DNA from: Escherichia coli
GTDB taxonomy: Bacteria; Pseudomonadota; Gammaproteobacteria; Enterobacterales; Enterobacteriaceae
Assembly: GCF_003334785.1 (NCBI RefSeq)
Contig: NZ_QOWV01000006.1
Strand: one strand, 5' to 3'
DNA length: 64,000 nucleotides
The notes under the pieces were generated by a model, which did no database searches, was not told the DNA's origin, and was given only the letters and a program-made list of their open reading frames with translations. Both the position numbers and the translations under genes were made by a program. The stretch's first letter is position 1, and every line of letters begins with the position of its first letter. Positions 39,138-46,511 of the stretch are shown piece after piece.

Positions 39138-40445
39138 TTATTTGCTACTGTCCGGGCCGCGTTCACCGGTTGCTACCGGATTTTTTGGATCGCTGCTCCA
39201 TTCGTACCAGCCGCCGTCATACACGGAAACATTCTTCCAACCCATGGCGCGTGCGTACATAAAGGTTTCGGACGCGCGCCAGCCGGTGCCGCAGTAGAAT
39301 GAAACTTGCTGCTCTGGTTTGATATTCCACGCTTTCCACATAGCGGTAATATCATCGGCGCTGCGCATGGTGCCATCCGGGTTATGAAAATCTTCCATAT
39401 GCGTCGAGTCGCTACCAGCGTGTCCCCAACGTGCGCCGGCTATTTCACCTTTTGGTTTAATATAGCTGTAACCGCTGGTCGTACCGATAAATTCTGGCCA
39501 CGAACGAATGCTCACCAGCGATGCATCCTGGCGATGCAGCAGTCCACGGGCCTGTTCCATATCGAGCATCAACTGCGGTTGTGCCGGGATCTTCACGCCG
39601 AAATCCGGTTCCGCTTTCACTTTCGGTGGCGTTCCGCGCTCAACAGGCAGTCCCGCGTCGGACCAGGTTTGCCAGCCGCCATCCAGCAGGCGCACATCTT
39701 TCACGCCAGCATAAAGCATAATCTGCGCCACACGCGCTGCAGCGTATACGTCACGCCCATACAGAATGACCGTGGTGTCATGGCGAATGCCGTGTTTTGC
39801 CAGCATCGCTTTTAGTTGTTCATCAGAAACTTTGTTCCACAGCGGTTCACTTTCCACTTCGTTGGTATCGATGTAGTCAGCGCCGGGAATATGGCTGATA
39901 AGGTAAAGCTTAGGAGCGCCCCAGGCCGCTTCAATGACTTTCCAGTCACCGGCAGGTTTCGCCGTAACCTCTTTACCTTGTTGCAGGTCGTGCAGCCATT
40001 GCGGATAAACCAGCTGCTCAAAATGCGGCAGTTTTTGCAGACGGGAAGGTTCGCTTAGCGCGTCACTCAGGATGGAGATATGCGTTAAACCTGCTTTTTG
40101 CAGTCGCGTTTTGACGGCGTCGACATCTTTGTCATTACCGTACAGCGCCACCGGAGCATCGGTTTTCAGGTTATGTTGCTTGATCCACGCGTTGAGCTGT
40201 TCGGTGCTCATTTTGTCAAGCCAGCTGGCAGAGAGGTTTAAGGCGGCAGGTTCATGACCAGAAGGGCCATTTAAGGTTTGTGGCCAGCCGTTATAAAACG
40301 CGCTGGGGCGAGTATCTATCGCTTTGCCATTTTGTTGTTGAAGCTGGTCAAGTGTAAGAGGCTTCGCCAGTTCAGCGGCCCACGAAGAAGCGCAAGCCAG
40401 CCCTAAAGCCATTGCCAGCGCGGTCATTTGAGAAACACGTTTCAT
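39138..40445 (-). CDS. ynjE: Periplasmic multi-rhodanese thiosulfate/3-mercaptopyruvate sulfurtransferase YnjE, 435 aa
   Basis: Track ORF 39138..40460 trimmed to MKRVSQ; signal peptide; active-site loop CGTGWR. Confidence 0.85.
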   Translation of the reverse strand: MKRVSQMTALAMALGLACASSWAAELAKPLTLDQLQQQNGKAIDTRPSAFYNGWPQTLNGPSGHEPAALNLSASWLDKMSTEQLNAWIKQHNLKTDAPVALYGNDKDVDAVKTRLQKAGLTHISILSDALSEPSRLQKLPHFEQLVYPQWLHDLQQGKEVTAKPAGDWKVIEAAWGAPKLYLISHIPGADYIDTNEVESEPLWNKVSDEQLKAMLAKHGIRHDTTVILYGRDVYAAARVAQIMLYAGVKDVRLLDGGWQTWSDAGLPVERGTPPKVKAEPDFGVKIPAQPQLMLDMEQARGLLHRQDASLVSIRSWPEFIGTTSGYSYIKPKGEIAGARWGHAGSDSTHMEDFHNPDGTMRSADDITAMWKAWNIKPEQQVSFYCGTGWRASETFMYARAMGWKNVSVYDGGWYEWSSDPKNPVATGERGPDSSK

Positions 40446-40511
40446 CGAAAATCCCGACATTGTAGTTTTGAGTGCGCCATTCTGAACTGACGCATTGAGA
40501 AAAACTTTGCG

Positions 40512-41165
40512 TTATCGCAGTTTGTTGTAATTTTCTGACCACTGCGCCATATCCAGAACAGAACTATCAGCAGGAACATCCTGGAGATCGTGCGTTACCT
40601 GAACGACGGGGATCGCCAGGGCGCGAACTTCGCTGAACACCCACTGGCGAAAATTATCGCGCAGAGCCACATCAAGACGGCTGAATGGCTCATCCAGGAG
40701 TAACGCTTTTGGTTGGGCGAGAAGGGCGCGTAGTAGAGCAACGCGCGCTCGCTGACCGCCAGACAAAGTGGCAGGATCCTGATGGAAAGCTCCCTCAAGG
40801 CCTGAACGCTCAAGTGCATCATTCACGGCATTACGTCGGGCATTCCCTTTAAGTGTCGCCGGTAGCGCCAGCAGTAAATTTTGCCCGACACTGAACTGGT
40901 CAAATAACAGTGCATCCTGAAAAAGAATGCCAATCTGACGCTGTGCGGTGGGTAGGATGTCAATCCGTTGCTCATTGAGCCATAGCTCACCTGTACAAGA
41001 AAACTGTTCGGCCAGTGCACCAATCATCCATGAAAACAGAGTGGATTTTCCACAGCCAGACGGCCCCATTAACGTGACAATGTCACCTTTATCCACCGTA
41101 AAGTTAACGTTTGTCAGCAAGCGGCTTTCTGGTAAACGTAGCGAAACATTTTTCACGCAGAGCAT
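40512..41165 (-). CDS. ynjD: ABC transporter ATP-binding protein YnjD, 217 aa
   Basis: Track ORF trimmed to MLCVKNVSL; Walker A GPSGCGKST and ABC signature LSGGQ. Confidence 0.85.
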   Translation of the reverse strand: MLCVKNVSLRLPESRLLTNVNFTVDKGDIVTLMGPSGCGKSTLFSWMIGALAEQFSCTGELWLNEQRIDILPTAQRQIGILFQDALLFDQFSVGQNLLLALPATLKGNARRNAVNDALERSGLEGAFHQDPATLSGGQRARVALLRALLAQPKALLLDEPFSRLDVALRDNFRQWVFSEVRALAIPVVQVTHDLQDVPADSSVLDMAQWSENYNKLR

Positions 41166-45118: not shown

Positions 45119-45796
45119 TTATTCGGCGATTTTAAAGGTAACCGTTGCCAGCGTGTTATCCGCCGGGAGAACTGAGGCATTGCCTTTGAATTTAACTTCA
45201 CCACGTTTTTCAACCGCACCATAAGTGTATGTTGCATTGCTGACGATGCCGACCGGGCAGCTATCCAGACACACCAGGCAACCCGTTTTCTTCTCTTCTG
45301 CTGCCGTTAAATTACCGCCAAAGCGCATGTCCAGTTTCTTGCCATTACTGTCAACAATCACTTCATCGAAGGAATACGCTTTTGCCGCCCCTTGCCAGTT
45401 GACCGAAATATCCAGTTTGCTGCCTGTGACATGAGTCGTTTCTTTATTATCCATCGTCATGTTTTCGCCCGGCGTACCACCTGCCTCTTTCAGGGCTTCA
45501 TAAAATGCTTTCGGGGTCGCATAACCCATAAACAGCGATTTATGTCCGTTGGAGCCATCTTTAAACACAATACCGTGACGAGTGTCGTCGGTGAGGAAAC
45601 GACCATTAATTTGCACCAGCATGGTTACCGTATGGTTATTGGCATCGACACGCAGCGGTTGGCTGTTCGAAAGTCCGTCGTATTCCACTTTTGCCGCCGC
45701 ATTCTCTTGTTGATCGCAGCCGCTAAGCCCAGCAACAGCCAGTAAACAGAGTGCAGCCAGTCCTTTTTTCCATGACACTGAATAATGTTGCAACAT
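45119..45796 (-). CDS. ydjY: YdjY, lipoprotein with C-terminal CxxCxxxC motif, 225 aa
   Basis: Track ORF 45119..45958 trimmed to MLQHYSVSW; lipobox LSGC; CLVCLDSC motif. Confidence 0.8.
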   Translation of the reverse strand: MLQHYSVSWKKGLAALCLLAVAGLSGCDQQENAAAKVEYDGLSNSQPLRVDANNHTVTMLVQINGRFLTDDTRHGIVFKDGSNGHKSLFMGYATPKAFYEALKEAGGTPGENMTMDNKETTHVTGSKLDISVNWQGAAKAYSFDEVIVDSNGKKLDMRFGGNLTAAEEKKTGCLVCLDSCPVGIVSNATYTYGAVEKRGEVKFKGNASVLPADNTLATVTFKIAE

Positions 45797-45800
45797 CGTT

Positions 45801-46511
45801 CTATCCTTCATTTTTTGGGTGAGTAAGTGGGCTGCGGCGCGAAGCAGACAGATCCACATGTTTGTGTCGGGCGTAGAGTTTTGCGAGCTGGACGAGAATA
45901 AACAGCGCCAGGCCCGCCAGACAGAGTTGTAAAATAAAGCGCAGCGTAATGCCTTCATTGGCGAGATCGCTTGCCATCACGGTATAAATAACAATACCGG
46001 GTAGGGTCGTGAGTGCCGAAATAAGGGTATAAGGCCAGAAGGCGATTGTGGTTAATCCGTAAGCGTAATTTTGAATATTGTAAGGAAACAACGGGATTAA
46101 GCGGGTCAGAATAAGAAAATCAATACCGTTACGCGCAATGCCTTTTTCAATGGCCTGGAAGGTATTGCTATGGCCAACGTATTTCAGCAGTAAATCACGT
46201 CCCAGCCAGCGCGCCAGCAGGAATGAGCACGAGGAGGCCAGCGTGGCGGCAATTAATGAGAGTAGTGTCCCTAAGAGCGGGCCAAAAACTATTCCTCCCG
46301 CGATCACCAGTATGCTTCCTGGTAACAGCAAGAGGGTGGCAATGATGAATAACAGAATATAGAGGCTATAGCCGAAAAATCCGCTCTGGCGGATGAGTGT
46401 CTGTAAGTGGGGTAAATCGGTGAGCAGATCGAATAAACCGAAAGCGTGGATAGCGTAAATGACCAGCGCAAAAATAAGACAGGCAAAAAGAAATTTACGC
46501 TCAGCGTTCAT
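45801..46511 (-). CDS. ydjX: YdjX, DedA/TVP38-family inner-membrane protein, 236 aa
   Basis: Track ORF 45801..46559 trimmed to MNAERKFL. Confidence 0.8.
   Translation of the reverse strand: MNAERKFLFACLIFALVIYAIHAFGLFDLLTDLPHLQTLIRQSGFFGYSLYILLFIIATLLLLPGSILVIAGGIVFGPLLGTLLSLIAATLASSCSFLLARWLGRDLLLKYVGHSNTFQAIEKGIARNGIDFLILTRLIPLFPYNIQNYAYGLTTIAFWPYTLISALTTLPGIVIYTVMASDLANEGITLRFILQLCLAGLALFILVQLAKLYARHKHVDLSASRRSPLTHPKNEG

Follow-up and report, generated by a model that had tools for sequence, protein, structure and literature searches.

A possible anaerobic selenium-acquisition role for the ydjXYZ-ynjABCD and ynjE genes of Escherichia coli

The genes ydjX-ydjY-ydjZ-ynjA-ynjB-ynjC-ynjD-ynjE of Escherichia coli, identified from the RefSeq annotation, occupy the minus strand at positions 39138-46511 of a 64,000-nucleotide stretch of contig NZ_QOWV01000006.1, referred to here as the window. 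They are a confirmed, annotated core locus of the species, and it is still true, as the first-pass annotation of this DNA stated, that no role has been assigned to the module as a whole. It is proposed here, with a rough probability of 0.35, that the locus may be an FNR-activated anaerobic envelope system that acquires selenium or a related reduced chalcogen through a thiol relay and feeds the selenophosphate synthetase SelD. The proposal draws on gene content, motifs, gene linkage, and published regulation and co-expression, from which the identity of the element, the transport direction, and all of the chemistry are inferred. Two comparative observations bear on it: the lipoprotein YdjY is accompanied by TVP38/DedA membrane proteins across phyla, and genes of selenium utilisation recur beside it. 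The features concerned are listed below.

ydjX, 45801-46511, minus strand: TVP38/DedA (COG0398-type) inner-membrane protein, first gene of the operon; 236 amino acids in RefSeq
ydjY, 45119-45796, minus strand: lipoprotein of the YdjY family; 225 amino acids in RefSeq
ydjZ, 44397-45104, minus strand: TVP38/DedA (COG0398) inner-membrane protein, partner of YdjX
ynjA, 43849-44397, minus strand: AhpD-like/CMD protein with C74-x-C76-x-x-C79
ynjB, 42673-43839, minus strand: periplasmic substrate-binding protein of an ABC importer
ynjC, 41165-42700, minus strand: fused double permease of the ABC importer; 511 amino acids
ynjD, 40512-41165, minus strand: ABC ATPase, end of the ydjX operon; 217 amino acids in RefSeq
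ynjE, 39138-40445, minus strand: periplasmic three-domain rhodanese, EanB-like, with its own promoter; 435 amino acids in RefSeq
ynjF, 38509-39129, plus strand: membrane protein of the CDP-alcohol phosphatidyltransferase family, convergent on ynjE and outside the limits drawn in the first-pass annotation
selD (context), 31904-32947, plus strand: selenophosphate synthetase, 6.2 kb from the end of ynjE
FNR-type palindrome TTGATTTTTCTCAA, 46621-46634, no strand given: one mismatch, upstream of ydjX
sigma-70-like promoter elements (TTCAGA, 16 nt, TACAAT), 40459-40486, minus strand: in the gap between ynjD and ynjE

The limits of the eight genes are the same as in the RefSeq annotation of an identical strain (locus offset +30137). 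The 7374-bp stretch was matched in 5425 of 5426 complete E. coli genomes, and in 5380 the match covers at least 80% of it. The genes are co-directional and tightly packed, as described earlier, with junctions ranging from a 28-nt overlap to a 66-nt gap: ydjX and ydjY are 4 nt apart and ydjY and ydjZ 14 nt, ydjZ and ynjA overlap by 1 nt, ynjA and ynjB are separated by 9 nt, ynjB and ynjC overlap by 28 nt, ynjC and ynjD by 1 nt, and 66 nt lie between ynjD and ynjE. All motifs quoted in the first-pass annotation are present in the translations, and selD is indeed a neighbour, at 6.2 kb rather than the stated distance of about 7 kb. Recent horizontal transfer into E. coli was rejected, as the G+C content (0.48-0.58) could not be told apart from that of the flanks. 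Within 39138-46559, several longest open reading frames exceed those from the RefSeq starts: 246 versus 217 amino acids for ynjD, 279 versus 225 for ydjY, 519 versus 511 for ynjC, and 252 (from a TTG) versus 236 for ydjX. In NZ_CP110117.1 the region was matched in two pieces over 8151 bp for a query of 7374 bp, which implies an insertion of about 0.8 kb within the cluster.

YdjY is the most specific protein of the module. It possesses a lipobox (LSG-C27, followed by Asp28 at position +2) and a C173-LV-C176-LDS-C180-P motif, in agreement with the earlier description of a lipoprotein with CLVCLDSC, and belongs to the family NF040466/PF27149, with 146.2 bits against a cutoff of 50; PF27149 is precomputed on all of the listed homologs. 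Identity across phyla is at least 48%, and the invariant residues are Cys173, Cys176, Cys180, and Thr72-Arg73-His74. When about 100,000 species, each represented by one genome, were scanned, only 92 relatives were found, which belong to Escherichia, one Citrobacter, and otherwise to anaerobic or host-associated Firmicutes, Desulfobacterota, and Campylobacterota, together with one spirochaete. According to the sorting rules of lipoproteins, Asp at position +2 leads to retention in the inner membrane, and YdjY should therefore be held there. Some sources name homologs of YdjY 'ferredoxin'. An assignment as a 4Fe-4S ferredoxin was rejected, as the protein has three cysteines (C-x2-C-x3-C-P) and not the four of CxxCxxCxxxCP, matches Pfam Fer4 with E values of 0.09-0.25 and ferredoxin-like PDB entries with 0.3, and bears a Sec-type lipoprotein signal with no twin-arginine motif. 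The representative (P0001) of a 4665-member cluster of E. coli YdjY sequences has Ser at the otherwise invariant Cys173, either as a natural variant or through an assembly error, and some database entries hold longer forms of 246-264 amino acids.

The neighbourhoods of YdjY were surveyed in 80 retrieved loci, which were searched with the eight E. coli proteins and whose neighbouring open reading frames were clustered without reference to labels; the lineage counts given here refer to the 44 non-enterobacterial lineages represented. In 37 of these lineages, YdjY has a TVP38/VTT gene no more than 7 kb away (binomial P about 1e-61, a rough estimate). It is usually either an ortholog of YdjZ (49-59% identity) directly downstream, as in Firmicutes and Campylobacterota, or a YdjX-like gene (32-39%) directly upstream, found in Deltaproteobacteria and several Firmicutes and sometimes fused to a Fer4/CCG domain. 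Most Firmicutes loci contain YdjY and YdjZ only. A small membrane protein follows YdjY immediately in 18 lineages; no homolog of it was found in the E. coli window. Some YdjZ orthologs are long (389-417 amino acids; loci L043, L058, L063, L025, L016, L034, and L037), with about 130 extra N-terminal residues, and this extension and the separate small membrane protein are homologs (35-40% identity, E about 1e-24), which identifies a gene fusion. Fuller sets also exist. In one Bacillota locus (L056), the genes run YdjY, small membrane protein, VTT, VTT, CCG, YnjF-like, YnjB-like, permease, permease, ATPase; this is in essence the gene set of E. coli, except that CCG replaces YnjA and that ynjF lies inside the operon. 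Within the Enterobacteriaceae, Kluyvera and Citrobacter koseri keep ydjX (77%), ydjZ (80%), ynjBCD, and ynjE without ydjY, and the YdjX/YdjZ pair is therefore regarded as the constant core of the system.

YdjX and YdjZ, which are 26% identical to each other, were correctly recognized at first pass as DedA/TVP38-type membrane proteins. RefSeq names both 'TVP38/TMEM64 family', both have the hydrophobic segments expected of the DedA/TVP38 superfamily (PF09335), and the Kluyvera orthologs (77-80% identity) carry precomputed PF09335. Both fall in subfamily COG0398, to which YdjZ has been assigned in print; this subfamily is predicted not to flip undecaprenyl phosphate and forms the branch nearest to the eukaryotic scramblases (bioRxiv 2023.01.04.522824). 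The VTT/DedA domain is what the pair has in common with the COG0586 flippases and with the scramblases TMEM41B and VMP1, whereas the residues tied to undecaprenyl-phosphate transport in COG0586 are absent. An identity as undecaprenyl-phosphate flippase (COG0586/UptA) was accordingly discarded: scores against the UptA and DedA equivalog models are 27-36 bits for cutoffs of 236-250 (UptA, 27.5 and 36.4 against 250), and COG0398, that of YdjZ, lacks the charged residues at the tips of the re-entrant helices. COG0398 has also been linked to aerobic metabolism; the YdjX/YdjZ pair is instead activated by FNR and has its relatives in anaerobes.

The linkage of YdjY to selenium genes was found in several phyla. 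SelD is encoded within 10 kb of YdjY in 5 lineages (P 1e-5), and SelD, YedF, or both in 9 (P 6e-9); both are rough binomial estimates, with lineages taken as independent and gene placement as uniform. In a Desulfobacterales locus (L082), SelD, YedF, an 86-residue open reading frame, and YdjY form a contiguous co-directional string, and in a Syntrophaceae locus (L028) the string is a CCG-VTT fusion, YdjY, and SelD; the assignments in both are above curated cutoffs. In all five Facklamia species, the selenocysteine tRNA (tRNA-Sec; Rfam and ARAGORN) lies 1-7 kb from YdjY, followed by SelD and YedF in three species, SelB in three, and SelA in two, again above curated cutoffs where annotated. Such recurrent linkage to SelD, YedF, and tRNA-Sec in independent lineages places YdjY in selenium-utilisation neighbourhoods. 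Possible clients are found among the other recurrent neighbours, namely ArsS, C-GCAxxG-C-C, and PrdB-like proteins, whose families either bear the NCBIfam label '(seleno)protein' or are that of selenoprotein B. The Facklamia loci also encode CcdA/ResA-type extracytoplasmic thiol reductants. The first-pass annotation had suggested, from domain content, a function in sulfur or selenium handling or in envelope thiol redox. That idea is strengthened, mostly on the selenium side, by SelD, YedF, SelA, SelB, and tRNA-Sec beside YdjY in several phyla, and its envelope-thiol part by the recurrence of CcdA/ResA reductants and of an HdrD-like CCG protein; it is not demonstrated, and it needs amending. 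Short PrdB-like open reading frames of about 155 amino acids (L076, 4879-5346, and other Facklamia; L063, 13115) cover model positions 11-147 of 238 only and are probably selenoproteins in which UGA was read as a stop. The SelD reading frame of L082 starts at model position 59.

The cytoplasmic partner appears to differ between groups. YnjA contains C74-L-C76-EF-C79, and no signal peptide or transmembrane segment was detected in it. Its AhpD-like/CMD nature, claimed earlier together with the CLCEFC motif, is borne out by PF02627 (E 5e-8) and by AhpD-like relatives in the PDB (E 3e-9); the NCBIfam model 'YciW-related (seleno)protein' is matched with E 6e-29, under its cutoff. YnjA occurs in enterobacterial loci only, none being present in any of 74 non-enterobacterial YdjY loci. 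There, an HdrD-like Fer4/CCG protein is found in 18 of the 44 lineages, sometimes fused to a YdjX-type VTT domain. In Kluyvera and C. koseri, a YnjA homolog (51% identity) has kept CxCxxC (C-D-C-A-F-C in Kluyvera), and its gene overlaps the start of ynjF (84% identity) on the other strand. On the strength of these comparative loci, namely the L056 string and the Kluyvera and C. koseri arrangement, YnjA corresponds in enterobacteria to the CCG redox protein and occupies the same slot.

The regulation of the locus has been described. Chromatin immunoprecipitation sequencing and RNA sequencing have revealed that FNR directly activates ydjXYZ-ynjABCD, from a site at -60.5, and ynjE, which has its own promoter and a site at -41.5 (PMC3688515). 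The genes consequently form two transcription units and not one operon. The palindrome upstream of ydjX is centred 60.5 nt upstream of an inferred start at about 46567, which follows an extended -10 element (TGT-TATACC, 46584-46576), and its position matches the published -60.5 site; by itself, such a pattern is not rare within the window. With this box and the published data, ydjX is a member of the FNR regulon (PMC3688515). For ynjE, the search of the sequence for an FNR site found a CTCAA half-site only (40495-40499), and the -41.5 site rests on the published work (PMC3688515). The longest open reading frame of ynjE begins at an ATG at 40460 (440 amino acids), within the TACAAT element, and the RefSeq start at 40445 would leave a leader of about 7 nt if this -10 element is real.

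Independent component analysis of expression data has defined an anaerobic iModulon that comprises exactly ydjXYZ-ynjABCD, ynjE, yedEF, and yjiLM, and the authors proposed a role in the usage of molybdenum and selenium (PMC7888660). YedF scores as a 'selenium metabolism protein', and YtiA, from the yjiLM operon, as a 'Se/S carrier' (PF11823). In other bacteria, YedE, YedF, DUF3343, and activase/dehydratase families cluster with selD, selA, and selB (PMC5322559). These candidate selenium transport and carrier genes are co-expressed with the locus in E. coli, are linked to selD in other phyla, as YdjY is, and are likewise predicted only. They differ in that their families are unrelated to the proteins of the locus, YedE being a ten-helix, sulfur-transporter-like protein, and in that relatives of YdjY and of the TVP38 pair are absent from the published selenium gene set. 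A search for YjiL and YjiM near YdjY found them in one Syntrophus locus only, which is not a general pattern. FNR control and the anaerobic iModulon are already in print, the selenium/sulfur idea has already been voiced through the iModulon proposal, and the finding itself is already known. New here are the YdjY-TVP38 core, the equivalence of CCG and YnjA, the assignment of ynjF to the system, and the genomic association with SelD, YedF, and tRNA-Sec.

In the proposed mechanism, YnjE (through Cys385) and YdjY (through Cys173, Cys176, and Cys180) would capture thiol-bound or reduced selenium in the periplasm as a perselenide or selenotrisulfide. The YdjX/YdjZ pair would pass the selenium over the inner membrane, where a cytoplasmic thiol-disulfide oxidoreductase, YnjA in Escherichia and the HdrD-like CCG protein elsewhere, would reduce the S-Se bond and free selenide. 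The carriers YedF and YtiA and the enzyme SelD might then accept it, and YnjBCD would import a second solute. A narrower claim is advanced tentatively: YdjY, YdjX/YdjZ, and YnjA/CCG may form an unrecognised route to SelD dedicated to low selenium concentrations under anaerobiosis, with YnjE and YnjBCD as accessory arms. Selenium is known to enter through side activities of the transporters for sulfate and phosphate, and according to reviews E. coli must have other uptake systems. A mechanistic analogue, and no more than that, is the mercury relay MerP-MerT/MerC-MerA, in which a periplasmic cysteine protein, a small membrane transporter, and a cytoplasmic reductase of the disulfide-oxidoreductase type follow the same proposed logic. 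The commonest fusion partners of COG0398 DedA proteins are pyridine-nucleotide disulfide oxidoreductases (bioRxiv 2023.01.04.522824), a family that includes MerA and glutathione reductase.

Several observations weigh against selenium acquisition. No selenium gene lies within 10 kb of YdjY in 35 of the 44 lineages, including many loci of Gemella, Finegoldia, and Peptostreptococcus. Where such genes are present, they could serve neighbouring selenoprotein genes and not YdjY. Rhodanese, YedF, and DUF3343 proteins also serve sulfur, and only SelD, SelA, SelB, and tRNA-Sec separate the two elements. The proximity of selD in E. coli is common to all enterobacteria and is not independent evidence, and ydjY is missing from the otherwise orthologous loci of Kluyvera and C. 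koseri. The COG0398 DedA proteins are predicted to be lipid scramblases and not carriers of ions or solutes (bioRxiv 2023.01.04.522824), and the nearest folds of YnjB carry no selenium pointer. YnjF, the MprF-like flippase domain, the GT2 (glycosyltransferase family 2) and CofC-like enzymes, and the nucleoside hydrolase found near YdjY are left unexplained by a selenium relay. Two published results point to the envelope, namely that the substitution P213S in ynjC confers fitness under colistin and that overproduction of BaeR mildly induces ynjABCD.

Sulfur in place of selenium stays a serious rival, which is nevertheless judged unlikely. Sulfane sulfur, polysulfide, or thiosulfate would be handled at the anaerobic envelope, with YnjE as a persulfide carrier or an EanB-like former of C-S bonds, YnjBCD as an importer of a sulfur compound, and YnjA and YdjY as thiol relays; a published proposal by which YnjE takes part in molybdopterin sulfuration belongs here. 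YnjE was rightly called a secreted multi-rhodanese: it is periplasmic, has three rhodanese domains, and combines the rhodanese fold with the catalytic loop CGTGWR, which contains Cys385. Over the mature protein it is the same as PDB 3IPO/2WLR save for one substitution (Pro here, Leu in both PDB chains). Its next-best PDB matches are the sulfurtransferases of the 6KTV/6H98 series (E about 1e-88, residues 33-427), which we take to be EanB, the O2-independent ergothioneine synthase. If 6KTV/6H98 are the polysulfide-using EanB, this alignment favours sulfur; it runs end to end and includes the CGTGWR loop and the conserved block that precedes it. The discoverers of EanB cite YnjE as an EanB-like enzyme of unknown function. 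YnjE differs in being exported to the periplasm, and no histidine methyltransferase of the EanA type is among the features annotated in the 25-kb region. A sulfur role is further favoured by the weak resemblance of YnjC and YnjD to CysT and CysA, as well as ModB, and by HdrD/CCG, TusA-like YedF, and DUF3343 being classic sulfur-trafficking families. Both the FNR study (PMC3688515) and the authors of the iModulon (PMC7888660) cite a role in the molybdenum cofactor.

Other data speak against sulfur. YnjE has little or no activity with thiosulfate (thiosulfate:glutathione) or 3-mercaptopyruvate, its substrate is called unclear, and it contributes little to cellular sulfane sulfur (PMC10215317). 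Deletion of ynjE leaves molybdenum-cofactor-dependent phenotypes normal (PMC3831636), and the protein is periplasmic whereas synthesis of the cofactor is cytoplasmic (PMC10215317). The linkage of YdjY to SelD, SelA, SelB, and tRNA-Sec is specific for selenium, and the nearest folds of YnjB are not sulfate or thiosulfate binders. The earlier idea of a sulfurtransferase is amended in this respect: YnjE is poor with thiosulfate and EanB-like. Triple-rhodanese genes resembling ynjE lie near YdjY in 4 of the 44 lineages and recur in Catonella, Campylobacter, and Peptostreptococcaceae.

YnjBCD is a complete ABC importer, as first described, of type I, with a secreted binder, two permease halves fused in YnjC, and an ATPase with the canonical motifs. 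YnjB has a signal peptide and matches its own family (NF008633/PRK11622) with 560 bits; a sequence search of the PDB gave no match. Its AlphaFold2 model (pLDDT 87) was placed by Foldseek in the class of iron, phosphonate, polyamine, and thiamine binding proteins, with TM-scores of about 0.6 and an identity of at most 17%. TbpA is one of many such neighbours (TM-score about 0.55-0.6), and the sulfate and thiosulfate binders are not the nearest. The halves of YnjC, which has about 12 hydrophobic segments, match PhnU2, ModB, and CysT models. YnjD contains Walker A (GPSGCGKST) and LSGGQ, and its best NCBIfam matches are the PhnT2, sulfate, and ThiQ ATPases, all under cutoff. The architecture is that of the ThiBPQ, PhnSTUV, and CysPUWA importers, comprising a binder, a fused double permease as in ThiP or PhnU2, and an ATPase, and YnjB shares their fold class; all matches are, however, far under the equivalog cutoffs, and YnjB is at most 17% identical to its structural neighbours. 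The common database label of a sulfate/thiosulfate or thiamine transporter was rejected on account of the CysT, CysA, and ThiQ matches, which are far under their cutoffs. A YnjB-like binder with permeases and ATPase was found in 7 of the 44 lineages, the YnjB homologs being 29-34% identical, and the Firmicutes loci have two separate permease genes in place of the fused YnjC. YnjB is far more widespread than YdjY within the Enterobacteriaceae.

A pathway for an envelope lipid or head group is distinctly less probable. A polar alcohol or sugar would be imported by YnjBCD or made by ArsS, TIGR04282, and TIGR04283 enzymes, attached to a lipid by YnjF or the GT2 enzyme, and flipped by YdjX/YdjZ, with YdjY and YnjE acting on the product outside the membrane and the thiol proteins as accessories. 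Such a pathway would resemble choline import coupled to the phosphatidylcholine synthase (Pcs) route. It is suggested by ynjF, whose product matches archaetidylinositol-phosphate and phosphatidylinositol-phosphate synthases in NCBIfam, under cutoff. YnjF-like CDP-alcohol phosphatidyltransferase genes occur in 5 of the 44 lineages and lie inside YdjY operons in L030, L043, L050, and L056, and in both Kluyvera and C. koseri, ynjF and the YnjA homolog are translationally coupled. Because of these Firmicutes operons and of the overlap with the YnjA homolog, ynjF belongs to the conserved neighbourhood. Other neighbours of lipid or sugar type recur, including an MprF-like flippase domain, a GT2 enzyme (TIGR04283) similar to polyprenyl-phosphate sugar transferases, a fusion of a CofC-like TIGR04282 domain with a kinase, LolCE/MacB-like ABC parts, and a nucleoside hydrolase. 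The resemblance of COG0398 DedA proteins to eukaryotic phospholipid scramblases (bioRxiv 2023.01.04.522824), the colistin fitness of ynjC P213S, and the induction of ynjABCD by BaeR agree with such a role. Each lipid-type neighbour is, however, present in only 2-7 of the 44 lineages, and such a pathway would account neither for the three invariant cysteines of YdjY nor for the CCG fusions or the association with SelD, YedF, and tRNA-Sec. We know of no unusual anaerobic phospholipid in E. coli, which also counts against this pathway.

It is quite improbable that the locus has no single function and is a mosaic of independent genes (a DedA pair, an orphan ABC importer, and a rhodanese) which share anaerobic regulation only. 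The module is separable, considering that Kluyvera lacks ydjY and has its ynjA homolog elsewhere and that most Firmicutes have just YdjY and YdjZ; ynjE is under its own promoter (PMC3688515), and the wider distribution of YnjB among enterobacteria points the same way. Against a mosaic, YdjY, two VTT genes, a redox protein, YnjF, a YnjB-type binder, permeases, and an ATPase recur as one co-directional string in Bacillota (L056 and L050), YnjE-like genes recur in the three groups named above, and the E. coli genes are co-expressed as one iModulon (PMC7888660).

A cassette labelled 'arsenosugar' was also found in the surveyed loci. Its genes score above their cutoffs (ArsS 433 bits for 300, TIGR04283 231 for 182, and TIGR04282 155-177 for 134) within 7 kb of YdjY in 10 of the 44 lineages; Campylobacter, Catonella, Facklamia, and Syntrophus are among those in which they share operons with YdjY and the VTT pair. 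Three-cysteine sites are typical ligands of As(III), and the YdjY site together with the CxCxxC motif of YnjA could bind As(III)-type species in the service of an organoarsenical pathway; this arsenic model was demoted to a highly improbable one because three randomly sampled, unrelated ArsS contexts contained neither YdjY nor a VTT gene, the link being one-way, and because the annotated features of the 25-kb E. coli region include no cassette gene, the cassette being present only in the loci of relatives, while, in addition, no ars gene is among the annotated recurrent neighbours and the 'arsenosugar' name comes from cyanobacteria for a family also labelled '(seleno)protein'. An unrelated Chloroherpetonaceae genome has a 110-residue CMD/AhpD-like gene directly upstream of ArsS (L093, 6650-8044), which counts in favour of arsenic and hints at a wider partnership of CMD and ArsS proteins.

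Trace selenium is needed for the formate dehydrogenases and other selenoproteins and for the selenouridine of tRNA, and its acquisition is a long-standing question. If the locus does acquire selenium, a role would be found for nine uncharacterised E. coli genes and a function for the orphan fold of YdjY, and the COG0398 branch of the DedA proteins would receive a first class of physiological substrate. It would also become clear why these genes are co-regulated with yedEF and yjiLM by FNR under anaerobiosis. Should selenium prove wrong, the cross-phylum synteny map still restricts the function to thiol-dependent membrane chemistry and indicates that ynjF is to be studied with the operon.

No riboswitch or other cis-regulatory RNA that would reveal a ligand was found upstream of the YdjY operons in 14 loci or in the E. 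coli region. A borderline Rfam match to Clostridiales-1 RNA (49.5 bits for a gathering threshold of 48) lies between YdjY and the VTT gene of Catonella morbi (L037, 10571-10678) and was not found in three other Catonella loci. In the YdjY locus of Thermincola, a cyclic di-GMP-I riboswitch (L018, 15211-15295) lies about 1.1 kb downstream of ArsS. In the reference strain (720632), which is otherwise identical, the annotation marks the gene ves (L001, 24838-25374) as frameshifted.

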